Shown: piece by piece, positions 6,001 to 60,644 of the stretch
Numbering within the stretch: the stretch's first letter is position 1
Layout of the letters: every line of letters begins with the position of its first letter
Source: Raillietiella orientalis
Lineage: Eukaryota
Assembly (NCBI GenBank): GCA_036172245.1
Contig: JAYWIR010000045.1
Coordinates: forward strand, 1,426,001 to 1,490,000
Length of the DNA stretch: 64,000 bases
Direction of reading: 5' to 3'
The notes under the pieces: generated by a model
What the model was told of the DNA's origin: nothing
Database searches by the model: none
Seen by the model: only the letters and a program-made list of their open reading frames with translations
Program-made: the position numbers and the translations under genes

Positions 6001-7699
6001 CGAGGACGGTGCCTTCGAGCGTTCAACTGCTGATGCCTCAGCACGAAGGGAGCGGGCGCGCTTTTGGCACCTGCGATTTCACTTTCACGGCCCCGAGGCA
6101 GAGCACCTCGTGCGTGGGGATGTAGGGAACCCTGCGCCCGCGCAGCAGAGGGCGGGAGGAATCGACGGTTTTCTTCTTAGGGAAAGGCACCGATTATCGG
6201 CAATCCATCCATCCACCCCAATGCCCTCTCTCTTCCTTCCTTCGATGAAGGCTCTCCGGAAGTATGGCAGGTGCGGTTGTCTTGGGAACGGGGCTCTGAG
6301 ACGATCTCAAAACAGTTAGCTCATCGATCCGATCCCCTCTGCTCTTGGGAGCAAGACGAAATCCTGCCTGCACAAACAGGAAGAGGAAGCGGCAGCACTG
6401 CTGCCCTAGAAGCGACCTTCCGGTTTCCACCAATGCGGTGCGTCATGTCTTCGTGATCTTCATGCCGTCCGATTGCACTCTATCGCTTTCCCCCCCTGAG
6501 ATGCGCCACTATGGTCTTTTGGTTGCTGCGTTACCTGTCGTGCGACGTTGCTATGTTGCGTGCAGCGGTATGTCGACGATGCCAGCACCGGGAGATCTTG
6601 GTAATCGTACTCGGTGTTCTGGAACGGGCAGGGTCCACTTGCGTGCGTCTGCGGCGATGCTCTCGTTGCGGCGTGCGTGTGATCGATTTTCGGGTCGGAA
6701 AGGGACTTGCAGAGGATTCCCTTGAAGGTGATCGGCGCGCCTACTGTTCTTCTGGCTGTTGCCGATGCCACCACGCTTGGGCGTCTAGGAGATCGAGCTC
6801 GACGAGCAGCAGGTAGAGTTTCCTTCGGATCGTGCTGGGGACACGTGGAAGTATTCGGCTGCTCGATAACCCGGAAGTGCACGAAGAAGCTGGAGTAACA
6901 GGAAGGCGTGTCTTGCTGTCGTTTCGACCGAATCTTCACTGCGGGTCGGTGCAAGCAAAGATGTGCGACACTCGGGAGGCGGGGCACAGCAACCTGTAAG
7001 AAACGTGGCACTGGAACTTGCCGCCAAAACAATCCTCATTGGCCCGATCGCTGGGACAGGTCGCGGCCGAAGATGGAGAGGCCCACTGCCACTTGTCAAC
7101 TGCTGACCTCATGAGAGCAGCATCTTCCGAAGGCATCATCAGCATCCGATTCAGGAAGACTCGACCCTCATCCTTTCAGGTTGTTGTCGCCAGCATCACG
7201 GTTATTGAGTGCACCTGGTATCCGAGAGCTGTACTTCGGTTTTTGGTCCCTGGATGCGACCCACCTGCTGTCTTTGGAATCTCGCAAAGCACTACGTCAT
7301 CCAGCATCCACCGACCCCGATCTCCTCGCATCCTGTGCTCGGTAAGGAGTTTAAAATCGGCACTCATCTATCTTGAAGAATCAGCGACGAATCCTGGAAA
7401 ACACTGCACGCTTGTAGTCTCCCCCTCCACCCCAGTGGTCCAACTGCGGCAAAAAGATTGGCACTAGATCCATAGGAGGAAGGGGTTTGTTCTTTAGTTC
7501 AGGTGAGTCACGCCGTCTCCATAGGAAACGGCTCACCAAACGACTGCAGTTACTGTGCCCGTCATGGGCGTCCACCTCCTCCCCTTCTTTTCCTTCTCCC
7601 CCAGAGTCAGCACATTGTGATTCGGAACCACTTGCGTGAGACCACTGCAGTGTAACAGCCGGGGTCGCATCCCTCCAACCTCCCACCCCCTCTCTCCTT

Positions 7700-10600
7700 C
7701 CTCCTGCATCCCGACGTCCCTGCTTGCACGTGGTGGACGCGGCGGAGTGGACCCTGCATCCACGGGAAGGCGCTCCCGAAGGCACATCCACCGGGAGATA
7801 CGTGGAGCGCCTCCGCCGCCGACGCCACCACCACGCCTCGCCTCTTCCTTCCTGTAGCCCACCGTCTGCCGTCTCGAGGACTGCGGTCGTCACCGGCGAG
7901 TTTCCTCAAGAGTCCAAGGAAAGGAACGCGCAGGTATTTTCCTCCTTTCTTCCCTCTTCCCCTTTCCTCCCGCTCCTGCGTGCCTTCGGGGTCTCCGAGA
8001 GACCAATAAGAAAGCCTCTACATCACGCCGCGCGACTTCGCGCGGTCCGGCTCGTAAGAAACCACCGGCTGACCCTGTTCTTTGTCCGCACGCTCGTTTG
8101 TCGTCCCGCGGTTCACTGGAGATGATTTTCTCACGGGTGCGCACACGCGCCGAGTGATGCTGATCGCCTCGCGAGGGGAACCTCCATCGCGGGGGGGGGG
8201 AGGGGGAGGAAGCGAAGATGCTCACCCCGGGAATGCAGGGGAAAGGAGTTCCCACGGACCGTGTCCACTTGGAATGGCCGCAAAGTTCTTCCGGAATGAC
8301 CAGGAAGGAAGCGCGCGCCGCTCCCAGGGAAAAGAAGGAGCCTCCCTTTCCCTCGGAGCGGCACGCGCTTCTGGTTTCTTGCGCATGCTCAGATGTCTCC
8401 AGGTGAGGCTCGAGCGCAGCTCGCGCCGGTCCGCGAGGTCTCCGCGTCGTCCTCCGTCCTCCGAAGCAGCTCCGGCGACCGTCCAGCTGCGGGGGCGCGC
8501 ACACCTCCGCAAAAGCCAGGTGACTAAGGAAACGGACGCGGATGCGGTGCGCTCGAGGGAGGCACGCGCCTTGTCGTAACCTTGGGTTTCACCCGAAGCG
8601 AACCACGGAAACAGCGGGGGCCGGAAAGCGCCAATTTTCTGGAAGCCTCTCGTCGCACTAAGGCCCTGCGAGGAGATGTTCGATGGGAAGAAGAGAGCAG
8701 TCTCCGGACAGGCGGGAGGCACTCCCACCGGGAGTGGACCAGCCGGAAGCAGCGGGGATGGAGGGGAGGGTTGCAAAGATTTTTTTTTTTTTCCCACCAC
8801 AGAGTCCTGGGCCAGCAAGCAGGGGGAGTGCAGGGGGCATTCCAACGAACACCGGGGCACGCGCCCAGCTCATCCTCCGTCAGGTGAGATGATGTTGCTT
8901 GCCTCGGGGGCGAAAGCGACGCACCTTCTCCGCCTCCCCTCTCTCGGCCTACAGAGGCTGGCAGCGGGCGGTGCCGAAGAAAGTGAGGAGGAGGAAGGTG
9001 TAGCAGGCAAAGAGAGAGGGAGAGAGAGAGATGTGGACCCCCCCCTCTGGCCGCGGTGCCACTCTGCCACCCCTTTTCTCCGCTGCCGCCTCCGCCGCCT
9101 TCGGTGCGGCGGCGGCACAGCAGGCGGGTGGCTTGCGGAGGCCCCCGGTGGCCCAGTTCGCGTACGCCCACTCGGCAGCAACCAAACGCCGCGCGATCGC
9201 CGTGGCGGCCGGAGTTTTGCCGCTGCTGGCAGCGGTGCGTGAGGCCCTCGCGAGAAGCGGTGCGGGCGCAGCCGCGGCTGCTTCTAGATCTGCATCCGGT
9301 GGCGGCTGGCGGTGGTGCGTAGGGCCCGCTGCTTTTCCGTCTGCCCTCGGAGAGTGTGGACGCCTTGTCGGCCATGGACGCGCGCGCTCACCCAGGCGGA
9401 CGCGCTGAAGACGCCGGCAGTAACGCGCTCACGCAACGGTACGTGCCCTTTCACGCTCCCTCCCCCGTACGTTCCCTGGAACTGCCCGCTTGCCAGCCCC
9501 CTCGCGAGCTGACGACCTCCAGCTTTCCTCCTCCTCCGGCCGGCTTTCCCGGTGGAGGAGGAAGGGGAGGTAGGGGGACTTGTACCCCTTGATTCCCGGT
9601 TCTCCCGTCCCTTCCTGGTTCCGTTCGGCAGACGGAAAATCGGGCGTTTTTCCACGACGGGAATGCGGAAGAGGAAGGGCGCGGCTGGAAAAGAGGAATC
9701 AGGAGGCCTCCTCGCGGCTAAATAGGAGGCATCTCCTGCCCCTCTCCCAACGGTTCGCACCGCGCAACGTGCGGAGCGTCCACGGTGTCGGAAGGAAAGT
9801 GACTGGATAGAAAGAGGAGGGGGGGAGGAGAGAAGAGGAACCGGAGAGATTCCTTCCGACCCGTCACGGGTGTTGACGGATGAGGGAAGATTCGCTCCGT
9901 GAGTGCCGGGTGCGTGCGTCGGGGTCTGGCAAACAGGGGTGCGCCCCTCCTAGGAGGGAACCCGAGGAAACCCTGCGCCGTTCTCCTGCAGGTGCCTCGC
10001 AGGTATCAGCAGACACTTCCGGAACTAGGGAAGTTCACAGGAGCGGAAAAAGTCCTCCTCTCCGCGACGTGTGGGAGCCAGCGACCATTCCCGGGCGGAC
10101 GCCGCTCCCGATGGAAGCGGCCGAGACTGGGACGTTTGCCGCCACGCACTGAACCCACTCTTCGAGGGGAGGCGGGTGTGGGTGGGATGAGAGAACGCCT
10201 TGCTGGACCGGTGCTGAAGCGTGAAAGGGGAAGGTCTCCCGAGTCCCCTCCCCCCGCGCATGCGCGGTTCCTACGCCCTCGGGGAGCATGCACTGGCTCG
10301 GAGGTCCGCTTCCGCCTCGTCTGCTCGCTCTTACGCGCTCCTGATGCCATTCGCTCGCGAACGCACGTCTGCAGTTCCTCTTCCCGGCTTCGCTCCCGTC
10401 CAGGCGACAGCGATCCCCCCCCTCCCCCTCCAACAAGCCTCCGCGCGTCCGCTGCCAGCAGGGCGGTTCCCGCCCGGCGCTTTCTGGTGCGCCGCTTGGC
10501 CGGGTGCGGCGCTGCAGCCTCGCCAGCTTGCGCGACGTGTGTTGCCACGCGCCTTGTTTGTGGCGAATGGGTGTGTATGTGGTGCACGAGTATTTGTGGT

Positions 10601-10800
10601 GTGTGTGCGTTCGAGGTGTGTGTGTGGTGTATGAGCGACGCGTGTTGCCGGGCACATGTATGGGTGCGTGCGTGTGTGTGCTTTCCAGACGCGAAATGAC
10701 CCTTGCGTTTTTCCTGTCTCTCGCTCGGCCACTTTCCTTACCGACATCGTGCAGGCGCAGTCTGCGTTGCGCGATGCAGGACCGTTCGCGAGATTTCTTT
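7700..10800. other. GC/CpG-rich island (possible promoter or 5' region of an unidentified gene)
   Basis: Dense CG dinucleotides and G/C runs, with many overlapping low-complexity ORFs on both strands. A TG-rich stretch lies at about 10540-10680. Boundaries are approximate and no protein family was recognised. Confidence 0.45.
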
Positions 10801-11749
10801 TTTTTTTTTTTTTGAAAAAAGTCTCGGGATTTGCGCACAACTCATTCCACTGCTCGCGTGATCACTAGGGCGAGGGTGGACCAAAGCGGGCGAAAGGAGA
10901 TCTCGGGTAACCTGGAAAGTGCTGTGGTTGCGATTTCCTAGCAAACTGTTGCACTGATCCGGACATCGATCCGGATCAAGCGTTGCGACCACGCCCTTCA
11001 TTTGAGTTCGGTTCAACTGAAGACGTACTTCTTCGACACCCGTCGCTGACCACGGGACGAGCGAAGTCTTCGATCGAAACCCACAAATAGCAAGTGACCA
11101 TCGCTTTCTTCCACACTTTGCCGTGGCAAATTCCTCGAATGCTCTCTGCTGCTTATGATGAAAAAATTTCTTGCCTGTGGAGGAATGCAGTTCGTAGTCA
11201 TTTCCTTGGCGGGGTCATTCGGTGGGATGCAACGTGAATGCGCGGACCGTAGCCAATTATTCAGATTGAAATCGTTTTTTCTTGATTCAAGAACAAAGTA
11301 GGTGCAGACATCAAGCAGCGATGATGCTCTACGCTGGCTGCCGATCGTTTTTACGTGTGATTTGTGAACATCCCGCAGGCGCGCACTGGATGTCGAAATC
11401 CTCTGGATGGCGGTGGAAAGTTGACCAGTCGTAGTATCTCCGATGGCAATCCCCAGAAATATGAACAGAGAATGGAATCCGTGTTTCAAAGGAAATTCCA
11501 GAAGATCGCTGATTTTTCAAAGCCGAATAAGTGGATATTCGTTCATACGTTTCCGCTGAACGAACAGCATCGAGTATCTTTGAACTACCCTTGGTTTCCA
11601 GTTGCAAGTAAACTGTGTTTCCATGTTTCGTTTCTGTGTTCTGCTGAACAGATCCCTCGATGATTCTGGGTCAAGAAAAAAAGAAAGAAACAATTAGGGA
11701 TTGTCGGTGTCCCAGTACATATTTCAATTTCCTAACGATTATCAAATAG

Positions 11750-11870: not shown

Positions 11871-14726
11871 GTACGTGCTGCTAGATGGAATGCAGCTTCA
11901 GAGAACGGACAACCAGTACCAAGCTTACCGCAACTCACCAATTTCCCCAAAATTTTGTCGCCTTCCTTGGTAAAAAAAATCTTGAAAAACTGCAAGCTGG
12001 AATGTCCGATTATCAGACCTTGTCCGGACAGCGATTTTCAAGTGGAGGATTTCGTCACAGCAGCCAAGAAGACAGTAGTTTGTATTCTCGTGGACATTTG
12101 GATCATCTTGCACACCTATTAACTCCTGATGTCTTGATGAATTGCAGCTCAGTCTCTCCGTAGCTTTCGGACACATTCATCAACGCTTCCTTTATGAACT
12201 GGAAGAGCTAATGCTTGAGAACTTCCCAAAATGTCTTGTCACAGTACAAGATCTTCAAGATCTGGAAAAAAAGAATAGACAGCTTGCACAATGCCCAAGT
12301 TCTTTTTCTTGAGAACCGCTAGTTTCGACAGTTTGAGGAAAAAGTGGTTCACCTCAACAGTGATTCCATCAGGACTGCAGCAGCCTCTGAGAATGGGTCT
12401 AGAAACGAAAACTCCTTGCAACTGCTTGCTTCTTCTTCGACAGAACAGTCGTTGTGTTCCACATCCTCGAGACCCTTATTTCAAGGTGGGATGTTCATTG
12501 GCTGGGTGTTTTCATGCCTTTGAAACTGCTCGTAACATTGCTGCAAGCACAGCACCAAACCGCTCTCATCACTCATTGCTCACAGAAATGCTTGACTCCT
12601 GGTCTGAGAGACCGACGAATCAAAGTGACTTGATTTAGGAAAACGTGCAGGAGGGAACTTCACGTATGCTAAGTTTGCTACCTCCCTTTTTGAGGAATCT
12701 GTGGAAATGTGTTCACTGCGTTTGTTGACAAGCCTGGGAATTCTACTCGAAAACTCCTGCTCCTACTCTACGGTCCTTCAACAGTAGAGCGGCCCTGTTT
12801 TGGTATTTCAACTGGCGTGGCTCACCTGTTCACTGACCATGCAAGGGTGCGATCCTAATGTTGGTGCGCGGTATCCTGAACAAGCAAATTCATCCGCAGT
12901 TCCTTTTCTGTGTAATCTTACTGGTCTAACTCTCACTACACCGGTTCCTTGGTCGTTAGTTAACGATCTTTGTTGCTCCCTGCAGCACCGATACTCATTT
13001 CAGTTGCTGCCACTTGGAAGGTACTCTGATGTTGGGATGTGAAAAAGTGACTTTTCGCAATTTTTCTGTTGCCTGCTGATTGTGCCAAATCTGTTTTCAA
13101 ATCCAAGCTACCCTCCGAAGACCCAGTGAGTGCCAGGAGAAGAAAGCCTTGGCATGAATGAAGTCCGAATGAAGCTATACACAGAGGCGGGACATCGCCC
13201 TTGCCTGGAAATTACAGCAGAAGAGAAGGATCCGGTCAGAAAGTCGCGCTCAAGAAGGAGCAGAGCGCTCGGCTTTCCACTCTCCTCCAACTCTGTGAGC
13301 GAAGAAGCCGTTCAGCGCCAAGAGAACATCTTTCTGCTCTTGAAACAGAAGCTGCATCCCTCATGGATTCCTAATGGACTGCGAATGGTACTGAAAGGTC
13401 GAAAGTGATGAAAAGTGGACGATGAAAGATGTGGCTAGCGTGATACCCAACGGCGAAGGCCTGTTGTTCCTGGGTCGCAAGCCAAACGCCGGGCGTCACC
13501 CCCGCGCGCACACCGCCAGTTTCGAATCCTCACTCGTTCCTTAGGCTTCGAGGCACAGAAAGGTCGTTCGTTCCTCCTGGTTCCGATTCGAGAATACAAA
13601 GCGGAACACTCCAAGATTCTAATAAGAGAAATGATAGGCAGACAGGAAGCAGCTCACCAGCGCCTTGTGCTAGAAAGTGTTGAACAAGACGAGCTAAGCT
13701 GGGAAGCCCACGGTGTTTTTTGAGGCGAAGACGCTTGGAAATTGTGGTTCCCCCGACTAGGATCGAAAAATCAAGCCGCATTCCGCAAACTTTCCTCTCC
13801 CTATCGAAGTTCCTTTGTTTCGAAAAATGTGAACGTGGCGTGGATCACTATCTGGAGGGCAGAAAGCCGGTCCCACCGAACTCGTTTTTCGTGAGCGGAA
13901 AGAGGATGTTGCTACCCAGGCAACGCGTAGATGGATCCAGTGGATCCTTGTTCTGAGTGCCATCTGGTGAAGAAGTGCCGTGCGAATGAGATCGGGGGAG
14001 GGGAGGGGGGAAGATGCATGCGACTGTCGAATTGTGAACCAGTTTCTTCAGCCGAGTGACGAAGACGGGAAAGTCTTGCTCACGTCTTGTTTTTGTGGAT
14101 TCCGTGTTAAGAGGCGATTTTTCTCACCAAGGAGTCGTCGCCGCAGAAATTTTTTTCCGAGGACAGGATCCAAGTTAGTTCGGCTGCAATAAAGGAACAT
14201 ACTCACATCATCATGCCGAATCGAAGGGAAGACGCGTGAATCCATGCTTAAGGCCGAGACCACAGGAAAAAAGCTATTACCATGTTTTGGGCCGTAATAA
14301 CGCTTCGGAAAATTCAAGGACGCACTACGCCTCGTGATTTCAGATTTTTGCCTCCCAACCGGTTCCTATGGCAGCCTCCGCAAATCTAAATTCCAGAGAA
14401 TCGTCCGACGTCGTGAGCTTCCCACGTGGGCAGCTCTTGGCCGTGTTATTTACTTCGGATTTCTTGCAGTCTACTTTATTATCCCTCATCAGTTTTTTTT
14501 TTTTTTTGCTGTTGTTGTTGGTTCCGTTTTTCTCATGCGTTACTTCGATGAGAGTACAGCATGCGCAGTTGTTTCCCAATGCCATCCAGAGAAGCCGAAG
14601 TATGCTTTCGGGAATCGTGTCCTGCGCGTTTGACACGAGAGAATTCATCCCACGTCTGCTGACAGTCCAAACTTTCTCCGCGATAACATGTAATAGCCAA
14701 AAAATGATAAACAGTGGCACAGGTTG

Positions 14727-22342: not shown

Positions 22343-22412
22343 ATGCCTGTGAAATCAAAGCAATGCAACCCAATTACTGTGGAACCTTTTCGTGACCTCT
22401 ACATTCCTAGCA
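22343..22412 (+). CDS. Putative first coding exon of the giant repeat-protein gene
   Basis: Acceptor TTCCAG ending 22335, ATG at 22343 and strong donor GTAAGT at 22413. It reads MPVKSKQCNPITVEPFRDLYIPS, and its phase-1 end joins in frame to the phase-1 acceptor at 22973/22974. Confidence 0.45.
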
Positions 22413-22973
22413 GTAAGTATACTTATTAGTAGCTTAACTTATTTTTATAACTTAAATTTAAAAACACACACACAAATTGGTATGAAATCACTTATAAGCT
22501 ACACTTGATTTCTTAAGTACATTGAGAAAAGCTTACAATCAAACGAAATCAAATCATACGTAAAAGTCCAAACCAGTTGTGAACATCCATATTTAGACAA
22601 AGGTAATATAATCAAGATTACTGTTCATGAAAACTTTTTTTATTTCAAAAATTCCAAAGAACCTTTCCATTCAGCTGGAAATCTGCCAATCATAATTGAA
22701 AAGTACATTATCGGCCATATATCCATACATTGCAATATGTAGAATCTAAAAATTAGAAGCAATACACTCCACACCACAAAGTACGTAAAATAAAAACACA
22801 ACAAAAACTTGAATCGAAGCGAAATCCACCACAAAAATCTTTCAAGCCATATATACTTTTAAAACCCTAAACGGAAAAAGGCGTGAAGCAATTTAAATTC
22901 ATCGAGAACACGTTTAAAAATAGCGCCCAAACGTACAAGAAATACAGCAAAGACTAATAATTTATTTCAAAAG

Positions 22974-25900
22974 GAGATCCAGAACGAACAGAAGAGAAAA
23001 GCTCATATTTGGAAATCCACAAGAAACCAAGGGAAACAGCGGAACACAGCATTTATCAAAGTACAACGGTTGCTCAAGCAAATCGGATTCAGCAACAACA
23101 ATCCACAAAATCCATTCAAATAATAACTTTAGAAAAGACAGAATATGAAACAAAACAACAACCAAATCAAACGGAAAAAAAGAGTACCAATCAGTCACAG
23201 TCGTCAATGCATCGATACCACAAACACCATGAAAATAATACCAAACAACACCAAGCAATTCAGGAACCACTCTCACTCCAAGGAAACCGATACATCATGA
23301 ACACATCGTTAAAAGAGTCATTCCACGAGGAAACCAATCAATACGACACACATTATCAAACAAGGCACAATAGAAAAGATGAGGAAACAACCCACCACAC
23401 ATACAGCCGAAACAACATCCAGCGAGAAAAAGAAACAAACACAACAGTCGAACCAGAAATGAAAACTCTGACAAGCGACTCAAACTTCCAAGCCATGAAA
23501 CAAATCAAAAGGAACGCAAACGACGAAAAGTATTCAACAGAAAATACTAAAGATACACCACTAAAACACAAAGAAGCATCAGCTAAAGAAACCTCTAAAC
23601 AAATCAAGGATCTACACTACAAATGTGAGAGAATTCCTTGCTTCATTTATGCAGAAAATCTAAAACTTAACAAAATATGTGCAACCAGAAACCAACAGCT
23701 CACAGAAAAAATTTACCAAGCAAACGTACACACAAAGTTAAAACCAAAAGAAAAATCTCCAATACAAAAAAATCAAATATCAATTCTAGAAAGCACTATA
23801 AACAAAAACACACCAATTAAAAAATCAGAACACAAACCAACTACCAAACCAAAAACTCCCACAAATATACAAGAATCAATCAGTCCAAGAAGTACCAACA
23901 CAGGCAACCAAAGGCTCCAATACGGAGGATATCACAAGACAGCCCCTCCCACAGCTTACCCTCACAAGGAAAGCGAGTACGCCAGCGGCAGAACATTCAA
24001 TTCGAACGACATTAGAGAACATCAAGCAAAAAGCTCACCACCTATAATGCAAACAAACACACTAAAGGTGGAAGAACAATTCTCTTCCGTGTCGGTGGCG
24101 CGGAGCGAGTACCGGGAGTGCCAGGGAGAACGAGCGCCGCGGGTGGTGCACGCGGACCATCTGAAGCCGGAAGGCGACTTCGTGGCGCGGAGCACGTCCA
24201 GAGAGGACTTCAAGGAGAAACGTCGCGGCGACAGGGAGAAGGCGAAACGTCACCGGGACAACCTGAAGCTGGAAGGCGACTTCACCGGGGAGTCTGTGTC
24301 GCGGAGCGAGTTCAAGGAGGTGCGCGGCGATACAGCCGCGCGCGTGCCGCACCCTGACCACTTGGCGCCGGAAGGCGAGATGTCCACGACGACGAGCAGC
24401 CGTTCGGACTACAAGGAGGTGTCTGTGCGCCGGGAGTTGCCGAAGCGCCACGAGGACCACCTGAAGCCGGAAGGCTCCTTCGAAGGGCAGTCGGTTTCGA
24501 AGGCGGAGTACCAGGAGTGCCAGGGAGAGCGCGCCGCTCGAGTGGTGCACCCGGATCAGCTGAAGACGGAAGGAGAGTTTAGCGGCGTGAGCAGCACGAG
24601 CGCCGACTTCCGCCCGATGGTGTCTACCCCGCGAGCGAAACCGAAACCCCACGAAGACCACCTGAGGACGGAGGGGCCGTTCGTCGGAGAGACGGTGGCC
24701 ATGTCGGAGTACAAGGAGTTCCGCGGGGAGCGTGCTCCGCTGATCGTGCGACCGCAAGACGCCAATCTGCTGGTGGACGGCAGCTTTTCCGGTACGACGA
24801 CGACCGTGGAGGCGTACTGGTGGCCTCGCGGGGAACGCGAGAAGCCGGCAAGTCCATCGGACAACCTGAAGAGCGAGGGCGAGTTCGTCGTCGGCCGGAC
24901 GGTGGCCCAGAGCGACTTCCGGGAGTTTCGCGCGGACTGTCTTCATCCCTGCCGATCCTCGGACACGCCGAGCCGGAAAGAATGGCTGCGGGCAGACAAG
25001 TCGTTCGTGGGCGCTCCTCCTCTCCTGCGGCCGAGCATCTGGCTGCCCACGAAGACAACCTTCGAACGGAAGGCCCCTTCGAGGGACAGTCGGTTTCGAT
25101 GACGGAGTACCGGGAGTACCGCGGGGAGCGTGCTGCCCGTGTGGTTCACGGTGACCACCTGAAGGTTGAAGGCGACTTCGTGGGAGTGAGCAGCGCGTCG
25201 ATGGACTACGCCGCTCCGCAGCCGAGCCCCCGGGACAAGCCGAAGCGACGTGAGGACAACCTGAAGGTGGAAGGGGATTTCTCCCCGGTGTCGGTGGCGC
25301 GGAGCGAGTACCGGGAGTGCCAGGGAGACCGAGCGCCGCGGGTGGTGCACGCGGACCATCTGAAGCCGGAAGGCGACTTCGTGGCGCAGAGCACGTCCAG
25401 AGAGGACTTCAAGGAGAAACGTCGCGGCGACAGGGAGAAGGCGAAACGTCACCGGGACAACCTGAAGCTGGAAGGCGACTTCACCGGGGAGTCTGTGTCG
25501 CGGAGCGAGTTCAAGGAGGTGCGCGGCGATACAGCCGCGCGCGTGCCGCACCCTGACCACTTGGCGCCGGAAGGCGAGATGTCCACGACGACGAGCAGCC
25601 GTTCGGACTACAAGGAGGTGTCTGTGCGCCGGGAGTTGCCGAAGCGCCACGAGGACCACCTGAAGCCGGAAGGCTCCTTCGAAGGGCAGTCGGTTTCGAA
25701 GGCGGAGTACCAGGAGTGCCAGGGAGAGCGCGCCGCTCGAGTGGTGCACCCGGATCAGCTGAAGACGGAAGGAGAGTTTAGCGGCGTGAGCAGCACGAGC
25801 GCCGACTTCCGCCCGATGGTGTCTACCCCGCGAGCGAAACCGAAACCCCACGAAGATCACCTGAGGACGGAGGGGCCGTTCGTCGGAGAGACGGTGGCCA

Positions 25901-28900
25901 TGTCGGAGTACAAGGAGTTCCGCGGGGAGCGTGCTCCGCTGATCGTGCACCCGGACAATCTGCTGGTGGACGGCAGCTTTTCCGGTACGACGACGACCGT
26001 GGAGGCGTACCAGGGCTCTCGCGGGGAACGCGAGAAGCCGGTGCGTCCATCGGACAACCTGAAGAGCGAGGGCGAGTTCGTCGTCGGCCGGACGGTGGCC
26101 CAGAGCGACTTCCGGGAGTTTCGCGCGGACAGATCTGCGCGCGTGGTACACTCGGACACGCTGAAGCTGGAGCTGCTGGCGAAGAGCCGTACGAGCGAAG
26201 ACTACAAGGCGTCCCCCGTGCAGGCACGCGAGCACCCGGCTGCCCACGAAGACAACCTTCGAACGGAAGGCCCCTCGAGGGACAGTCGGTTTCGATGACG
26301 GAGTACCGGGAGTACCGCGGGGAGCGTGCTGCCCGTGTGGTTCACGGTGACCACCTGAAGGTTGAAGGCGACTTCGTGGGAGTGAGCAGCGCGTCGATGG
26401 ACTACGCCGCTCCGCAGCCGAGCCCCCGGGACAAGCCGAAGCGACGTGAGGACAACCTGAAGGTGGAAGGGGATTTCTCCCCGGTGTCGGTGGCGCGGAG
26501 CGAGTACCGGGAGTGCCAGGGAGACCGAGCGCCGCGGGTGGTGCACGCGGACCATCTGAAGCCGGAAGGCGACTTCGTGGCGCGGAGCACGTCCAGAGAG
26601 GACTTCAAGGAGAAACGTCGCGGCGACAGGGAGAAGGCGAAACGTCACCGGGACAACCTGAAGCTGGAAGGCGACTTCACCGGGGAGTCTGTGTCGCGGA
26701 GCGAGTTCAAGGAGGTGCGCGGGGATACAGCCGCGCGCGTGCCGCACCCTGACCACTTGGCGCCGGAGGGCGAGATGTCCACGACGACGAGCAGCCGTTC
26801 GGACTACAAGGAGGTGTCTGTGCGCCGGGAGTTGCCGAAGCGCCACGAGGACCATCTGAAGCCGGAAGGCTCCTTCGAAGGGCAGTCGGTTTCGAAGGCG
26901 GAGTACCAGGAGTGCCAGGGAGAGCGCGCCGCTCGAGTGGTGCACCCGGATCAGCTGAAGACGGAAGGAGAGTTTAGCGGCGTGAGCAGCACGAGCGCCG
27001 ACTTCCGCCCGATGGTGTCTACCCCGCGAGCGAAACCGAAACCCCACGAAGATCACCTGAGGACGGAGGGGCCGTTCGTCGGAGAGACGGTGGCCATGTC
27101 GGAGTACAAGGAGTTCCGCGGGGAGCGTGCTCCGCTGATCGTGCACCCGGACAATCTGCTGGTGGACGGCAGCTTTTCCGGTACGACGACGACCGTGGAG
27201 GCGTACCAGGGCTCTCGCGGGGAACGCGAGAAGCCGGTGCGTCCATCGGACAACCTGAAGAGCGAGGGCGAGTTCGTCGTCGGCCGGACGGTGGCCCAGA
27301 GCGACTTCCGGGAGTTTCGCGCGGACAGATCTGCGCGCGTGGTACACTCGGACACGCTGAAGCTGGAAGGGGAGCTGCTGGCGAAGAGCCGTACGAGCGA
27401 AGACTACAAGGCGTCCCCCGTGCAGGCACGCGAGCACCCGGCTGCCCACGAAGACAACCTTCGAACGGAAGGCCCCTTCGAGGGACAGTCGGTTTCGATG
27501 ACGGAGTACCGGGAGTACCGCGGGGAGCGTGCTGCCCGTGTGGTTCACGGTGACCACCTGAAGGTTGAAGGCGACTTCGTGGGAGTGAGCAGCGCGTCGA
27601 TGGACTACGCCGCTCCGCAGCCGAGCCCCCGGGACAAGCCGAAGCGACGTGAGGACAACCTGAAGGTGGAAGGGGATTTCTCCCCGGTGACGGTGGCGCG
27701 GAGCGAGTACCGGGAGTGCCAGGGAGACCGAGCGCCGCGGGTGGTGCACGCGGACCATCTGAAGCCGGAAGGCGACTTCGTGGCGCGGAGCACGTCCAGA
27801 GAGGACTTCAAGGAGAAACGTCGCGGCGACAGGGAGAAGGCGAAACGTCACCGGGACAACCTGAAGCTGGAAGGCGACGTCACCGGGGAGTCTGTGTCGC
27901 GGAGCGAGTTCAAGGAGGTGCGCGGGGATACAGCCGCGCGCGTGCCGCACCCTGACCACTTGGCGCCGGAGGGCGAGATGTCCACGACGACGAGCAGCCG
28001 TTCGGACTACAAGGAGGTGTCTGTGCGCCGGGAGTTGCCGAAGCGCCACGAGGACCACCTGAAGCCGGAAGGCTCCTTCGAAGGGCAGTCGGTTTCGAAG
28101 GCGGAGTACCAGGAGTGCCAGGGAGAGCGCGCCGCTCGAGTGGTGCACCCGGATCAGCTGAAGACGGAAGGAGAGTTTAGCGGCGTGAGCAGCACGAGCG
28201 CCGACTTCCGCCCGATGGTGTCTACCCCGCGAGCGAAACCGAAACCCCACGAAGATCACCTGAGGACGGAGGGGCCGTTCGTCGGAGAGACAGTGGCCAT
28301 GTCGGAGTACAAGGAGTTCCGCGGGGAGCGTGCTCCGCTGATCGTGCACCCGGACAACCTGCTGGTGGACGGCAGCCTTTCCGGGTACGACGACGACCGT
28401 GGAGGCGTACCAGCCCTCGCGGGGAACGCGAGAAGCCGGTGCGTCCATCGGACAACCTGAAGAGCGAGGGCGAGTTCGTCGTCGGCCGGACGGTGGCCCA
28501 GAGCGACTTCCGGGAGTTTCGCGCGGACAGATCTGCGCGCGTGGTACACTCGGACACGCTGAAGCTGGAAGGGGAGCTGCTGGCGAAGAGCCGTACGAGC
28601 GAAGACTACAAGGCGTCCCCCGTGCAGGCACGCGAGCACCCGGCTGCCCACGAAGACAACCTTCGAACGGAAGGCCCCTTCGAGGGACAGTCGGTTTCGA
28701 TGACGGAGTACCGGGAGTACCGCGGGGAGCGTGCTGCCCGTGTGGTTCACGGTGACCACCTGAAGGTTGAAGGCACTTCGTGGGAGGAGCGCGTCGATGG
28801 ACTACGCCGCTCCGCAGCCGAGCCCCCTGGGACAAGCCGAAGCGACGTGAGGACGGATCAGCGCGGCGGATTTCTCCCGTCGCGCTGTGGCGCGGAGCAG

Positions 28901-31630
28901 CACCGGGAGTGCCAGGGGAGACCGAGCGCCGCGGGTGGTGCACGCGGACCATCTGAAGCCGGAAGGCGACTTCGTGGCGCAGGAGCACGTCCAGAGAGGA
29001 CTTCAAGGAGAAACGTCGCGGCGGACAGGGAGAAGGCGAAACGTCACCGGGACAACCTGAAGCTGGAAGGCGACTTCTACCGGGGAGTCTGTGTCGCGGA
29101 GCGAGTTCAAGGAGGTGCGCGGGGATACAGCCGCGCGCGTGCCGCACCCTGACCACTTGGCGCCGGAGGGCGAGATGTCCACGACGACGAGCAGCCGTTC
29201 GGACTACAAGGAGGTGTCTGTGCGCCGGGAGTTGCCGAAGCGCCACGAGGACCACCTGAAGCCGGAAGGCTCCTTCGAAGGGCAGTCGGTTTCGAAGGCG
29301 GAGTACCAGGAGTGCCAGGGAGAGCGCGCCGCTCGAGTGGTGCACCCGGATCAGCTGAAGACGGAAGGAGAGTTTAGCGGCGTGAGCAGCACGAGCGCTG
29401 ACTTCCGCCCGATGGTGTCTACCCCGCGAGCGAAACCGGAAACCCCACGAAGCTGATCATCGGAGGACGGAGGGGCCGTTCGTCGGAGAGACGGTGGCCA
29501 TGTCGGAGTACAAGGAGTTCCGCGGGGAGCGTGCTCCGCTGATCGTGCACCCGGACAATCTGCTGGTGGACGGCAGCTTTTCCGGTACGACGACGACCGT
29601 GGAGGCGTACCAGGGCTCTCGCGGGGAACGCGAGAAGCCGGTGCGTCCATCGGACAACCTGAAGAGCGAGGGCGAGTTCGTCGTCGGCCGGACGGTGGCC
29701 CAGAGCGACTTCCGGGAGTTTCGCGCGGACAGATCTGCGCGCGTGGTACACTCGGACACGCTGAAGCTGGAAGGGGAGCTGCTGGCGAAGAGCCGTACGA
29801 GCGAAGACTACAAGGCGTCCCCCGTGCAGGCACGCGAGCACCCGGCTGCCCACGAAGACAACCTTCGAACGGAAGGCCCCTTCGAGGGACAGTCGGTTTC
29901 GATGACGGAGTACCGGGAGTACCGCGGGGAGGTGTCGCCCGTGTGGTTCACGAAGACCACCTGAAGGTTGAAGGCGACTTCGTGGGAGTGAGCAGCGCGT
30001 CGATGGACTACGCCGCTCCGCAGCCGAGCCCCCGGGACAAGCCGCCGAAGGATGCGAGGACAACCTGAAGGTGGAAGGGATTTTCCCGGTGTCGGTGGCG
30101 CGGAGCGAGTACCGGGAGTGCCAGGGAGACCGAGCGCCGCGGGTGGGTGCACGCGGACCATCTGAAGCCGGAAGGCGATTCTGTGGCGCAGAGCACGTCC
30201 AGAGAGGACTTCAAGGAGAAACGTCGCGGCGACAGGGAGAAGGCGAAACGTCACCGGGACAACCTGAAGCTGGAAGGCGACTTCACCGGGGAGTCTGTGT
30301 CGCGGAGCTAGTTCAAGGAGGTGCGCGGCGATGCAGCATCGCGCGTGCCGCACCCTGACCACTTGGCGCTGGAAGGCGAGATGGCCACGACGACGAGCAG
30401 CCGCTCGGACCACAAGGAGGTGTCTGTGCGCCGGGAGTTGCCAAAGCGCCACGAGGACCACCTGAGCCGGAAGGCTCCTTCGAAGGGCNNNNNNNNNNNN
30501 NNNNNNNNNNNNNNNNNNNNNNNNNNNNNNNNNNNNNNNNNNNNNNNNNNNNNNNNNNNNNNNNNNNNNNNNNNNNNNNNNNNNNNNGTGAGCACGTTGC
30601 TCAGGTGGTGCATGCTGGCGAGCTGAAAGCGGATGGCTTTGCTCTGGGTTTAGATAAGTCGGTTGTTTTGAAGGGTGAGTCAAAATCTCAGCTGAATGGT
30701 GTTGGTTCGAGTTCAATTGGGAGTTTGAATGCGGTAAAGTGCAATGTGATGGGAGGTAAAGTTTCGCTTTCGAAATGTGTGAAGAAAACTGTTGCTGATA
30801 AGGAGGTTCCGTGTTCGGCTGAAGTTGTTGATTCTCATCGTGTGAGGGATATTGGTGGAGTGGATGTTCCGGATAGTATGGTTTCGAATTGTGGTGCTTC
30901 TGCTAGTGTGTTGTCTGTTGCTTCCATTGTATCGAAGGTTCCTGTGGATGATGCGAGAGCTATGTATGTTTCTGATTCGCCTTCGAGCTGTGCCTCTGTG
31001 GATAAGATTTCGATTTCTCAGTCTGGGAAAGGTGTGGATAATATTCGTGTTGGTTATAAAAGTAGTGCTTATTTAAATCGGTCACTACGTTCTACTCCTT
31101 TGTTTAATAATGATGAAAGTAGAGGTGGGTTCCTTGCTAACAAAATGAGGAATACTGGAAGCTCTATCTGTTTTGATTCCTCTATTGAGGTTGTTGGTTG
31201 TGAGGTAAAGCGTTCTAATCTTTCCAGTGCTCATGTTTCCTCAAAGTCTGAAGGTTTTGAAAAGAGTTTGAGGAATTTTTCTTCTTATGGCTCTGTCACT
31301 AAATCTTGTGTTTCGTCTAAGTCTACCGAGGCGGGTCGTTCTTTAACTGTTCACTCGAGTTTGTTTGGTTCGGAACCTCATGTTAAGGAACCCTTATCTG
31401 TTTCTGGTAAGAATGGATGTTTGTCGGGGTGTGTGGATTTGAAGAAACAGGAAAATTTCCATTCATCATCAAGTACTTGGACGGATGCTGAATTTGTTAG
31501 GAAACCTAGGAAGCGTTGGGCGGAGAGTGAGAAATTTACCGAATTCTCTTTCAAATCTTCTGGATACAATGTCAGAAGTTCTTCTGAATCTTTGTTCCTG
31601 AATCCGTTTGCTGGGAAAAATTCATCCTAG
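22974..31630 (+). CDS. Giant exon of a large repeat protein with SAXO/MAP6 (STOP) Mn-like repeats; frameshifts and a gap in the array are probably partly assembly errors
   Basis: Branch-like CTAAT at about 22954 and acceptor AAG at 22971-22973. Consecutive + ORFs (23009..25102, 24820..26298, 26295..28460, 28439..29152, 29091..29456, 29494..29964, 30605..31630) encode the same 33-34-aa unit, consensus D[HN]LKxEGxFxGx[ST]xxxx[ED][YF]. The [ST]-x4/5-[YF] core after F-x-G resembles Mn motifs of SAXO proteins. Strong GC3 codon bias in this frame; stop TAG at 31628-31630. The family assignment is by motif recognition only. Confidence 0.75.
24063..30488 (+). repeat. Coding tandem array, 1203-bp (401-aa) period, about 5.3 copies, each made of 12 units of 33-34 aa
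   Basis: Identical shadow ORFs recur at 24118, 25317, 26513 and 27716 (spacing 1199, 1196, 1203). Unit lengths 33,34,33,34,33,33,33,34,33,33,34,34 sum to 401 aa. Copies are nearly identical at the DNA level. Confidence 0.97.
30489..30587. other. Assembly gap (99 N) at the right end of the tandem array
   Basis: Run of N read directly; the true array length is therefore unknown. Confidence 0.99.
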
Positions 31631-56700: not shown

Positions 56701-58764
56701 TAGGGGACACTTTAGCGATCCCTGTCTCGTCGCAACAGGAAGGGAGGGAGGAGGTGGGGGGAGCAATTGCTTCCTAGTTGGATTCCTGAGAGATAGAATC
56801 GGCCTGCCAGAACCTCGCATGGTCGAAAAGGATGCGGAAATGGACATCGTCGGAACGGCATCCGTCCGGAGAGCAGACACATCTGGGATCGGAACAATCT
56901 GTAGGTGGCGACAGAAAATCCCGGGTATGTGTCGATGGTGCTCACTCTCCCAAGCAAGGGAATGTCTCCGTCGCTATCCTTAGTATGGCCAAAAAAATAG
57001 AAAACAACTTCGAAACGAGGCACCCATGTACAGATGGAAATATAACAGGATGAATACACTCTCGGTCGCCTGCACAAAGTCATCCTCGTTGCGCCGCTCC
57101 GCGCGCGTCCAGGCCAGAAGACATCGTCATCGCGTGAGTCTGCTGGGGGGAAAACCGAACAGGCAGACTTTGATATATGAGACCAAACGAGGTTTTTCCC
57201 ATCTGGAGTCTAGCTGACCCGGAGTAAAAAGACGTGTGGATTGGTTCGAGACTCGAAACCAAGGACGCTGCGGAGCTTCGGCGGATGAATGCTTATTAGG
57301 ATTTGGGTAATCTGGCGATGACCTTGTGCTACTACGTATTTAATGTTTTCTTTTCTAGACAGCTCTCAGTGCTTCGAAGATCCGCGGGAGTGTTTGCCGC
57401 TGGACCATTTCCTCTCTGTGCACGCCGTGAGAGTTCTCCTACAGGTAACTAAGCGAAGTTTCCTCTAGGAGGGAAGAAGACGCAACGGCAGATGGGGATG
57501 ACCGTAAGATGCGGGATGGGTTGCGCCTATTCGGCTGCTTGTGACGCTGGACGCAGCAGAAGCGATTCCGCTCAGCATCCGCTTTCGGAGCGCCCGACAT
57601 CCGACGAACGTGTGGGTGGTGGGTGGTGGATACGGAGCCTCGAAGATGAATACTCCTTCCTTCTCTTCCTGTCGATGCTGGGAAGTTGACCTAATAATCC
57701 CACTGGTGCATGAGTGTGGGAAGTGGAGGAAGGGGGAAGTGAGACTGAGGGCCCACCCGCGAGAGGATGGAGGGGGCTGAGGGTTGCCTGTGTCTTTCCC
57801 ATTTGGAAAAGGTTGATCCGAAGCGCCGCGAATGAGTGACCCGACCCCCAGGCACGACCCCCTCTGCACCGTTCCATGTCACGATACTCGAGAAGTGGTG
57901 GAGCTCTGGGGGTTTGGAGGGGTTCACCTTGAGGCTGATGGGGGCAGGGAAGACCTACGTCCGCAGACTCGGATGGAGGAACATCCCTGAACTTCCATCC
58001 TCCAGGCCGGTCGCTCCCTGGAGATCCGGGAAGGATCAGTTGCTGCTCCTACCGCAGCCACAACCACTCGTCATCCGCTGCTTCCACTCTGGCGTCTCTG
58101 TGAGCTGGGATCGAAGAGGGGAGAAATCTGGATGATCTGCGATCCATGACGCATGTTCACGTAGTCCAGGCCTCTCGAGGCCTCCAGGGTCAACTTCCTT
58201 CCCTTCTTGCCGAAGCTGTCCTTCCACGCTTTCACCTCAGCTTCCCTTAGAGGAAGAGACAGCTCCATACTCTGCCTGCTTTGTGGATCGATGAAATACC
58301 CTCCGACAACTCTTTGCTGTTCCTCTTCTTCTCCTTCCCCTTCCTTTCTTTTCCTCCCTTTCTTCCTCGGCGCGGTCTCGGAACGAGCGGGTCCACGCAG
58401 CCACAAGAAGGATTCTTCCTGGCAACTCCAGTTCCTCCCCATCCTCCCCCTCTCCGGTGGACAAGAACGCGTCCGGTGACGTGAGGTAGGGTGTTTTTTT
58501 TCTCCAATGCTTGCTCGATCCTCTCGCTCCTTCCCCTGCGCCTGCTTTCCTGGAAGATGCCCCTTTTTCCCCTCTAGCGCCGAAGGAGCTCGATTTTTCA
58601 GTCGGCTCCTCGACTCGCGGAAGCGCAGGGAATGCGGACGCTTTCGTTTGCGGGAGGACTCAATGCTCTCCTCCCCCTCCCTCATTCCCTGGGTGTGAGG
58701 GGAGCGAGCTCCTCCGGGCATTTTCTGACGAGAGTCCTGTCTCCCCTCTGATTGCAGGCACCCG

Positions 58765-60644
58765 ATGTCCCTACGCGTTTTCCTCTTGCTTCTGGCAACC
58801 ACTTCGGTCCTCTGCCGCCCAGAAGAAGGGTCGATCCAGTTCGAGGGGGATTACGAGACCAATAAGACCTTAGAAGAGGAGGACGAGGAGCTAAGGAGCT
58901 TCATCCCTTTGCGCTCCTGCGGGATCCGCAAGTGCGTCTGTGTTCCCCCTTCCCAGTGCAGCAGGGTCTGCCCCGGAGTGGGACCCGGGGGTGCGCTGCA
59001 AAGCAGCCAACAGTCCAGTAGCCAGCAGTCTTCGTCACAAGAGTCCTCGAGCGTCGTGTCCGGATCCTCATTCTCCCACTCTCAGTCGTCGTCGTCGTCC
59101 TCCTCCTCCTCCTCGTCGTCCTCCTTCCAGAAAGCAGGCTACCCCATTCCTTTGCAGCCGTGTCCTTCTCTACCCGGAGGTGACGGGGGGGTTGTTCCCG
59201 GAGGAGGCCGTCCCGGGGGAGGCGTTGTTCCCGGGGGAGGCGTTGTTCCCGGGGGAGGCGTTGTTCCCGGAGGAGGCGTTGTTCCCGGAGGAGTCCTTCC
59301 CGGAGGAGTCCTTCCCGGAGGAGGCCGTCCCGGGGGAGGCGTTGTTCCCGGAGGAGTTCTTCCCGGAGGAGTTCTTCCCGGAGGAGGCCGTCCCGGGGGA
59401 GTCCTTCCTGGTGCTCCCACTGACGGCTCGGGTCTCATAGACATCCGGATAGTCAATACGAAGGTAAGCAGCAGGGCATTCCCCGTTCCGCTCCCAGAAC
59501 CCACTCTTCGGATGCTGACCAGGATACGAAGTTCGGCCAGTGCGCTCCGGGGTTGGTCTTGTGCTGCGCCGGCATCCCTGTGCCCAGGCCCCCTGGCTCC
59601 AGTCCCGGCCGAGTAAGCGCCGTCCTCCGGGACGAAGGGGGGTCTCTGTAGCCTTTTCTCGTTCTCTCCCTCTCGCGCAGGCGGAATTCGGGGAATACCC
59701 GTGGCACGCGATCATCCTGACCGTGGACGAGCACTACGTGGGGGGTGGAGTACTGATCAGCCCCACTCGGGTACTGACTGCGGCCCACACGGTGCAGAGG
59801 AGGTGAGTCGTCCTCGGAAGTGGATGTGATTGGAGTTTCTTGTCTTCCTCCCCCTCCCTTCCCCCTCCCTCCGCACCGCCTCTTCCGTCACCGAAGCAAC
59901 AAGCAGCTGATGGTCCGCCTGGGAGAGTGGAACGCCGGGGACAACACCGAACCGTTCCCCAGCCGAGACTTCCTCGTGACCACCGTCGTCGCCCACGAGA
60001 GGTTCAACCCGGAGAACCTCTTCTACGACGTCGCCCTGCTCACCCTGGAGAAGCCCGTGGACGTCATCAACCTGCCCCATGTGTCCTCGGCGTGCCTGCC
60101 GAACCCGAGGTCCAAGTTCGCCTTCAACAGGTGAGGGCAGGGGACTCTCCTCCTCATGCGGCGCACGCGCCTGTTCCCTTTCCCTCCTCCAGGTGCTTTG
60201 CTTCCGGGTTCGGAAAAGACGCCTTCAATGGCAGGTTCCAGATCATCATGAAGGAGGTGGACGTCCCGCTGATACCCCCCGACCAATGCGAGGCGCGGCT
60301 GCGCAACACCCGGCTGGGACCGACGTTTACCCTCAACCGGGAGAGCTTCATCTGCGCAGGAGGAGAGGAAGGGAAAGACACCTGCCAGGTAAGCATGGCG
60401 AAGGCCTGAAGGGGAAGGGGGGAGAAGGATCTCCGGGAGGAAAGAACGTTCTCTCACCCTCCTACCTCTCCGTATCCAGGGAGACGGAGGGTCGCCCTTG
60501 GTGTGCCAGGCCCCCAACCTGCAGTTCTATGTTGTGGGTCTCGTGGCCTGGGGGATCGACTGTGGCAAGGAGAACTACCCGGGAGTCTACGTGAATGTCG
60601 GCAAATTCTACAGCTGGATCGTGGACAAGACGGGACCCCTCTGA
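58765..60644 (+). CDS. Clip-domain serine protease homolog (non-catalytic, phenoloxidase-activating factor 2 / masquerade-like), 501 aa, secreted
   Basis: Exons 58765-59463, 59523-59612, 59681-59802, 59897-60130, 60193-60388 and 60480-60644, all GT-AG and phase-consistent (1506 nt). Hydrophobic signal peptide MSLRVFLLLLATTSVLC. Clip-type motifs CVCVPPSQC, TDGSGLIDIRIVN and CAPGLVLCC. Trypsin-fold motifs [56 protein letters not shown] and GLVAWGIDCG...PGVYVNV. The catalytic Ser is replaced by Gly. Confidence 0.95.
59002..59124 (+). repeat. Ser/Gln-rich low-complexity coding tract
   Basis: SSQQSSSQQSSSQESSSVVSGSSFSHSQSSSSSSSSSSSSS, encoded partly by TCG/TCC triplet runs. Confidence 0.9.
59185..59412 (+). 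repeat. Coding minisatellite of 15-18-bp units encoding GGVVPG / GVLPG / GGRPG
   Basis: Units such as GGCGTTGTTCCCGGGGGA, GTCCTTCCCGGAGGA and GGCCGTCCCGGGGGA are tandemly repeated in exon 1 of the protease homolog. Confidence 0.92.

Follow-up and report, generated by a model that had tools for sequence, protein, structure and literature searches.

The stretch of DNA analysed here (the window) comprises 64,000 nucleotides (nt) of Raillietiella orientalis (NCBI GenBank assembly GCA_036172245.1, contig JAYWIR010000045.1, positions 1,426,001 to 1,490,000 of the forward strand) and contains, at 24062-30488 on the plus strand, a 1203-nt block repeated in tandem. Each complete block holds 12 Mn-like modules of 33-34 amino acids (aa), and the array is flanked on both sides by reading frames that remain stop-free in phase. 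The region is probably the central repeat part of one very large arthropod gene, itself probably contained mostly in a single exon, that belongs to the SAXO/MAP6 Mn-motif superfamily and is closest to the Sdb type.

A BLAST comparison of the reference copy (c2; block 26262-27464) with the whole window gives 5.34 periods, made up of one partial and four complete copies followed by a copy of 621 nt, with DNA identities of 94.9-100%. The edge copy c0 (24062-25064, plus strand) begins in unit 3, and its units 3-11 share one frame; positions 24062-24937 correspond to block positions 196-1065 at 96.9% identity over 877 nt, while the alignment shows that the tail of this copy (24935-25045) has diverged. 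Copies c1 (25065-26261), c2 (26262-27463) and c3 (27464-28665) are full, plus-strand copies with 12 Mn-like units each; c1 and c3 are both 99.1% identical to the reference, such that DNA identity across the three central copies is 99.1-100%. The full copy c4 starts at 28666 (96.8% identity) and is followed by the partial copy c5 (29868-30488, 621 nt, 94.9% identity); this last stretch (28666-30488, plus strand) carries many 1-4-nt indels with repeated frame changes and ends at a run of 99 N (30489-30587), an assembly gap that falls within the gene. Because the array ends at this gap, the copy number can be given only as a lower bound. The G+C content is 64-66% in the array versus 35-47% in the adjoining DNA. 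Tandem Repeats Finder, run on the window, did not detect the array because its period exceeds the limit of the tool (500) and its sub-units are too diverged. The copies are 99-100% identical, compared with approximately 50-75% DNA identity among the modules within a block, and the 12-module block has therefore been amplified or homogenised very recently.

The repeated modules

Translation of the clean stretch divides the period into 12 units of 34, 33, 34, 33, 33, 33, 34, 33, 33, 34, 34 and 33 aa (401 aa), every one of which opens with an L-K-x-E-G-x-F-like anchor. A profile built from these 12 units has 67 matches inside the array and no credible match over the rest of the window. The modules are of two distinct, alternating types, odd and even. 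At the protein level, units of the same parity are 47.3% identical (30 pairs) versus 33.9% for units of different parity (36 pairs), and the corresponding DNA identities are 62.6% versus 55.6%. A maximum-likelihood tree of the 12 unit DNAs splits odd from even units with support of 95/91, and the two types differ in their tails, which are R-V-V-H-like in odd units and basic, K-P-K-R-H-E-like, in even units. An earlier interpretation made from the letters alone (the sequence-only reading) had proposed a basic unit of 33-34 aa, a two-unit alternation that extends to the tail types, and an exact 12-unit period of 401 aa repeated about 5.3 times, all of which are borne out by the translated units, the identities, the tree and the array itself.

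The same reading had also proposed a 6-unit half-period, in which unit n resembles unit n+6, and support for this level is weak. Units 1 and 7 are reciprocal best matches, as are units 2 and 8, but no other n/n+6 pair is. Of the 225 parity-preserving pairings, 4.9% attain the mean n/n+6 identity (0.506) in protein and 32% do so in DNA. Pairing in the unit tree, which had been suggested as a check, is largely absent: one of the six pairs is recovered (u02+u08, support 82/74), with the odd units left unresolved by the tree. The 6-unit half-period is thus weak in the window.

The Mn signature has been described as T/S and F/Y six residues apart (PMC3280300, PMC10973386 and a 2026 Xenopus preprint). 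In the form [ST]x5[YF] it is present in all 12 units at a fixed location (unit position 11, or 12 in unit 11), and the stricter form [TS][TS]x4[YF] is present in 5 of the 12, every one of them even. A low-confidence AlphaFold2 model of four units is an extended chain with no globular fold and with 3-residue helices inside three of the four Mn motifs (mean predicted local distance difference test score (pLDDT) 57.9, predicted template modelling score (pTM) 0.13). A 15-residue stretch of unit 3 (~25324-25368, repeated in each copy) also matches the end of the Pfam family Integrase_p58_C, with a score of 27.3 bits over a single period, against a cut-off of 27, and 41.1 bits over 1.8 periods; this short and repeated match is probably spurious.

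Reading frame, flanks and assembly quality

The sequence-only reading treated the array as one continuous protein-coding stretch, a description that does not hold for the sequence as assembled, in which no open reading frame (ORF) is intact. The path of unit-profile matches changes frame 12 times between 24062 and 30461, and a hand count of these matches leaves 52 of the ~64 unit positions unbroken within one frame. The longest uninterrupted frame (26271-28358) encodes 696 aa. Such frame changes would be expected of a decaying gene or pseudogene, in which the frameshifts are real and the giant protein is not made, and the diverged tail of c0 also agrees with decay. However, the clean 696-aa frame and the near identity of the three central copies weigh against a pseudogene, as does the concentration of indels beside the assembly gap. 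Copies c1-c3 differ from one another by 4-7 substitutions and one to three indel events in the copy alignment, compared with the many indels of c4 and c5, which adjoin the gap; many of the indels sit beside G or C runs. Since the indels crowd into two copies next to the gap, often at such runs, the preferred explanation of the frame breaks is that the repeat is poorly assembled and its consensus contains errors.

The differences between copies also favour synonymous sites. Between units 3-8 of c0 and c2 there are eight synonymous and five non-synonymous differences (pN/pS 0.19, from small numbers); every one of the non-synonymous changes falls in the junction unit, and units 4-8 contain four synonymous changes and no non-synonymous ones. 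This bias, together with flanks that are still stop-free in phase, argues for a real gene overlaid by assembly noise, and it is unlikely that the gene is decaying.

The state of the assembly bears on the array itself, and the copy number or the exact 12-unit tandem could in part be an artefact of mis-joined or duplicated reads, or of a longer array that has collapsed. The N gap lies within the array, consensus quality drops towards it, and the single public sequencing run found (6% of sampled words) covers 146 nt of it, since against 28370-29560 it gives one contig of 151 nt, at 29079-29224. The copies nevertheless carry specific substitutions that are common to some of them (e.g., T>C at position 594 in c1, c3, c4 and c5), and the edge copy is genuinely diverged, as in a real tandem array, which makes an artefact of this kind highly improbable. 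The longest ORF of the region runs across the array on the minus strand (26202-29456, 1084 aa); considered as a gene it was rejected, no Pfam family being matched, and it is probably a by-product of stop-poor, GC-rich repeats.

Upstream of the array, the putative N-terminal coding region (22974-24061, plus strand) is of low complexity, rich in T, K, E, S, Q and N, approximately 48% A, and in phase with the first units. The frame at 22961-24061 has no stops in 367 codons, compared with 14 and 12 stops in the other frames, and none of 5000 shuffles was stop-free. No Pfam family was found in this region. A candidate first coding exon lies at 22343-22412 (plus strand), where 23 codons, the first of them ATG, and one further base precede a GTAAGT donor at 22413; its phase fits an AG acceptor at 22972-22973, from which the frame would continue into the large ORF, and the candidate exon has no homologue match. 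The possibility that the A-rich upstream flank is a G>A-hypermutated copy of the array was considered and rejected, as collapsed-alphabet alignments did not outscore codon-shuffled controls (z -1.2 to 1.7) and no residual 99/201-nt periodicity was present.

Downstream of the gap, the putative C-terminal tail (30590-31630, plus strand, stop codon at 31628-31630) is rich in S, V, K and G and opens with the final part of an odd-type unit and a degenerate beginning of a unit. The start of the tail is similar to the array (z 6.5), and the tail has a clear 3-base periodicity. Its frame (30590-31627) has no stops in 346 codons, compared with 16 and 36 in the other frames, and again none of 5000 shuffles was stop-free. 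The tail matched no Pfam family and no relatives among proteins of 607-2000 aa, and Atlas scores were low, at most 0.81. A comparison of the two flanks rejected the idea that they are inverted repeats of each other. The window was also searched for exons related to the ends of the homologues, which gave one weak match (11951-12205, E 0.003, from ~200 queries) with an unconvincing translation. Taken together, these segments predict a gene that would encode more than 2,800 residues, with a head rich in T, K, E, S, Q and N, at least 64 modules, and a tail rich in S, V, K and G.

This single apparent exon contains three codon regimes (22800-24060, 24062-30488 and 30590-31630). Third positions are 49% A upstream (third-position G+C 33%), 82% G+C in the array, and 52% T downstream (third-position G+C 35%). 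The middle regime could be due to GC-biased gene conversion as the array recombines; the flanks have opposite skews, towards A and towards T.

Relationship to SAXO and Sdb proteins

SAXO, or MAP6-related, proteins have been defined by a 15-aa motif with an 18-20-aa inter-repeat and by an N-terminal cysteine cluster, C-x-C-x2-C-x-C (Dacheux 2012, PMC3280300). They are described as binding lengthwise along protofilaments, and members of the group as binding and stabilising microtubules (with resistance to cold and nocodazole) from the lumen, with one motif per 8 nm. A HMMER scan with the 726-aa clean stretch of the window (1.8 periods) against 1.84 billion representatives found 222 homologous proteins at E ≤ 1e-3, of which 65 reach E ≤ 1e-10 and 22 reach E ≤ 1e-30; many of the homologues are 1,000-5,512 aa long. 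Thirteen of the 20 top homologues scanned passed the Pfam SAXO1-2 family, several with more than 300 bits, and one of the homologues (P0010) matches the bovine SAXO1 of PDB entry 8OU0 (8ou0_D) at 9.9e-35. A profile of 19 canonical SAXO1/2 proteins scores 200 bits in total against the window; its best domain scores 90.2 bits and covers 321 of 469 profile positions (91-412). Homology to the SAXO/MAP6 Mn-motif proteins is solid in these comparisons, and the proposal of SAXO-like Mn motifs is upheld by the signature in all 12 units, the 90-bit profile domain, the 13 homologues and the match of P0010 to 8OU0.

The homologues include proteins of a fig wasp, phylloxera, ant, beetle, psyllid, flies and spiders, and carry a variety of names, including 'SAXO downstream of blistered' (Kallima inachus), 'titin' (Ceratosolen, Daktulosphaira and Cacopsylla) and 'TXND2, partial' (Pseudoatta); those of a beetle, flies, a mosquito and three spiders are uncharacterised. 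The sequence-only reading had stressed that the window holds far more repeats than SAXO1/2, which is true, yet the databases already contain giant relatives, of 1,000-5,512 aa. Giant forms of the SAXO/Sdb family are therefore already known, and the window gene adds to them.

The window gene is closest to the Sdb type, as judged by similarity, which is not a statement of orthology. Identity to the window is highest, at 36-38%, for insect proteins with DNLKxEGxF modules (P0001, P0002 and P0005), compared with 24-30% for SAXO forms with the cysteine N-terminus (P0003, P0007, P0009 and P0010). The DNLKxEGxF anchor is found in the window units and in P0001, P0002, P0005 and P0155. Drosophila Sdb and its insect relatives (for which 'titin' and 'uncharacterized' are frequent annotations) are likewise giant (1,800-3,100 aa), with long central DNLKxEGxF-anchored arrays and S/T/K-rich N-terminal regions that lack the SAXO cysteine motif. 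The predicted protein appears to share all the features of this type (giant size, DNLKxEGxF array, low-complexity N-terminus and no cysteine motif), a list drawn from our own reading of the homologues, not from a published definition. The insect modules differ in being mostly 29-31 aa long and often without the [ST][ST]x4[YF] helix signature, compared with 33-34 aa and [ST]x5[YF] in all 12 units of the window, and their higher-order periods are 1, 2, 3 or 5 units versus 12.

Canonical SAXO1 and SAXO2 (PF05217; e.g., the bovine SAXO1 of 8OU0), together with SPM1 and FAP363, resemble the window in that Mn-like motif and inter-repeat together span 33-34 aa. Canonical SAXO1/2 also have the 67-aa two-unit alternation, and their ~12 units (~400 aa) equal one period of the window. 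However, at ~460 aa they contain a single 12-unit set with an N-terminal cysteine cluster, whereas the window contains 5.3 or more such sets and lacks the cysteine motif, and the order of units is not detectably conserved between them. Giant SAXO proteins with the cysteine N-terminus, from chelicerates and others (e.g., Stegodyphus P0013, 1,936 aa; P0003, 5,512 aa), share with the window very long Mn arrays with super-repeats, and those of spiders share an NLKxEG-like anchor; they differ in their 24-30% identity, their super-repeats of 2 or 3 units, and the presence of the cysteine motif.

The favoured reading of these data is a microtubule protein of unusual length. The predicted protein would begin with an N-terminal region of low complexity, continue with 64 or more Mn-like modules (33-34 aa each) and close with a tail rich in serine. 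By extension from the solved structures of SAXO1, SPM1 and FAP363, each module would place a short helix at the tubulin intradimer interface and the chain would run along one protofilament, with one module per 8-nm dimer, such that long, load-bearing microtubules would be stabilised over at least 0.5 micrometre. By analogy, the most likely function is that of a thread that runs along a protofilament, one module to each tubulin dimer, and stabilises long microtubules. The best-characterised close relative is Drosophila Sdb. According to a preprint (10.1101/2024.11.22.624869), that protein binds microtubules, is expressed under SRF/blistered, and is required if the dorso-ventral microtubule-actin projections of the wing and the haltere are to withstand hydrostatic pressure; it acts on cytoplasmic microtubule projections of these epithelia and not on axonemal doublets.

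Several observations weigh against this reading. The broken frame of the assembled array and the low confidence of the AlphaFold2 model have been described above. The comparison of the 401-aa period with the Pfam SAXO family, which the sequence-only reading had recommended, gave a marginal result, with a score above the gathering cut-off of 26.5 for 1.8 periods (30.1 bits over 726 aa with PF05217 SAXO1-2) but below it for single-period pieces (18.1 bits for 399 aa and 15.5 bits for 302 aa). The SAXO N-terminal cysteine motif (C.C..C.C) was not found in the six frames of the window, although it could lie in an exon outside the window; it is present in the homologues P0003, P0007, P0013, P0018, P0156 and others. 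When 301 aa of the window repeats were compared directly with the sequences in the PDB, nothing matched at E ≤ 1. The gene start and the exon 1 model are deduced from the sequence, and microtubule binding, lumenal location and the ratio of one module per dimer are all extrapolated from relatives.

Periodicity and the microtubule lattice

The sequence-only reading went further, proposing that the 1/2/6/12-module hierarchy was selected to match the 8/16/48/96-nm periodicities of microtubules, such that the protein would act as a lumenal ruler of doublets. The length of the module fits one Mn motif per 8 nm, and a preprint by Leung et al. remarks that SAXO1, with its 12 Mn repeats, could produce a period of 96 nm. 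Comparative data on this idea are mixed. Amongst 57 homologues of at least 600 aa, in which a period was counted if identity at the top lag was at least 20%, an internal period was found in 28. Periods of ~1 unit (10 entries, four of which are isoforms of one gene), ~3 units (two), ~4 units (one) and ~5 units (two) do not favour a ruler, and the best-scoring homologue, P0001, has a period of 155 aa, or five units, that can be read directly in its sequence. Six entries have periods of ~2 units. Consistent with a ruler, however, six have periods of ~6 units (199-211 aa) and one (P0053, 407 aa) has a period of ~12 units. The six proteins of this 6-unit class share 25-33% identity, compared with 39-100% among their internal copies, as would be seen in divergent homologues with recently homogenised ~200-aa blocks. 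When P0011, P0034, P0137 and P0108 are compared, a single rotation of the block clearly outscores the others (e.g., 280 versus 103 and 158 at two-unit shifts), which indicates that the six unit types are conserved in phase among these proteins.

The 6-unit level is also visible in canonical SAXO1/2. In a sample of 20 relatives of 455-676 aa (from molluscs, a hemichordate, amphioxus, a sea urchin, fishes, sharks, birds and flukes), a lag of 199-208 aa is the top self-similarity lag in 12 and among the top three in 19, and lags of 67 and 33/34 aa rank next. Because canonical SAXO1/2 show lags of ~201, 67 and 33/34 aa, the 1/2/6(/12) hierarchy appears to be a property of the SAXO family and not peculiar to the window gene. 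Several divergent relatives have homogenised ~200-aa blocks independently while conserving six unit types in phase (the canonical and divergent proteins concerned, all outside the window, are P0160-P0179, P0010, P0011, P0034, P0085, P0108, P0137 and P0053). The conserved 2/6-unit design of SAXO1/2 may go beyond the related remark in print, that of 12 repeats and 96 nm in the Leung et al. preprint, no search having been aimed at prior reports of the design.

Within the window, several points speak against a ruler. The 6-unit level is weak both in the identities and in the tree, and the order of the window units fits the 6-unit super-repeat of the six proteins no better than parity-preserving permutations do (fractions of 0.07-0.96 attain the observed score, even with a segmentation adjusted to the real order). 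With the canonical SAXO profile, the best-domain score of the window order is attained by 32% of permutations and its full score by 54%. The odd/even order adds little to the SAXO profile score (correlation of 0.14 with the number of alternating junctions), and when the window odd and even profiles were used to type the units of homologues, there were 17 alternating versus 15 same-type neighbours, too few adjacent matches to be informative. The equality of 401 aa with the 12-unit span of canonical SAXO is suggestive, but unit-by-unit correspondence does not support the match, and the odds of a random block size being a multiple of 6 or 12 are not small. The 12-module period is best explained by in-register unequal crossing-over, which is sufficient both to create and to keep it, since an established higher-order repeat is kept in this manner without selection; furthermore, Sdb is reported to work on cytoplasmic and not axonemal microtubules. 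Selection of the hierarchy as a ruler of doublets is accordingly considered very unlikely.

A broader version of this idea, on which we place similarly little weight, is a nested design throughout SAXO proteins (1, 2, 6 and 12 modules; ~33, 67, 201 and 402 aa), maybe tuned to the 8/16/48/96-nm lattice, with five or more copies here of the 12-module (~96-nm) set. Nebulin, in which modules of ~35 aa are arranged in super-repeats along the filament, is the common precedent for a ruler of filaments. The likeness is conceptual only, as nebulin is unrelated in sequence and its filament is actin and not the microtubule. If the nested design were true, the protein would be a nebulin-like thread on one protofilament, at least 0.5 micrometre long, that sets or reinforces long-range order in very stable microtubule bundles.

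Mn-motif proteins are now seen as the main thread-like proteins lining microtubules, and their giant arthropod relatives are mostly mislabelled 'titin' or 'uncharacterized', with Drosophila Sdb the only one studied. On the favoured reading of a giant gene closest to the Sdb type, the locus alone is an ordinary, imperfectly assembled family member. It shows a route by which giant SAXO-type proteins grow, the recent amplification of a 12-module block, and together with the lags of canonical SAXO1/2 it points to a nested 2/6/12-module design in the family.

Elsewhere in the window, the region at 6400-11500 has a G+C content of up to 65% and many overlapping ORFs of 150-290 aa on both strands, with no Pfam match. 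The arthropod context of the array is provided by Clip-domain and trypsin ORFs at 58.7-60.4 kb. Here, positions 58729-60409 on the plus strand contain a weak Clip-domain match (16.4 bits, below the cut-off) and a trypsin match of 28.5 bits, above the cut-off, which suggests an arthropod clip-domain serine protease gene. A tandem repeat of 15/30/63 nt lies within this region, at 59191-59408.

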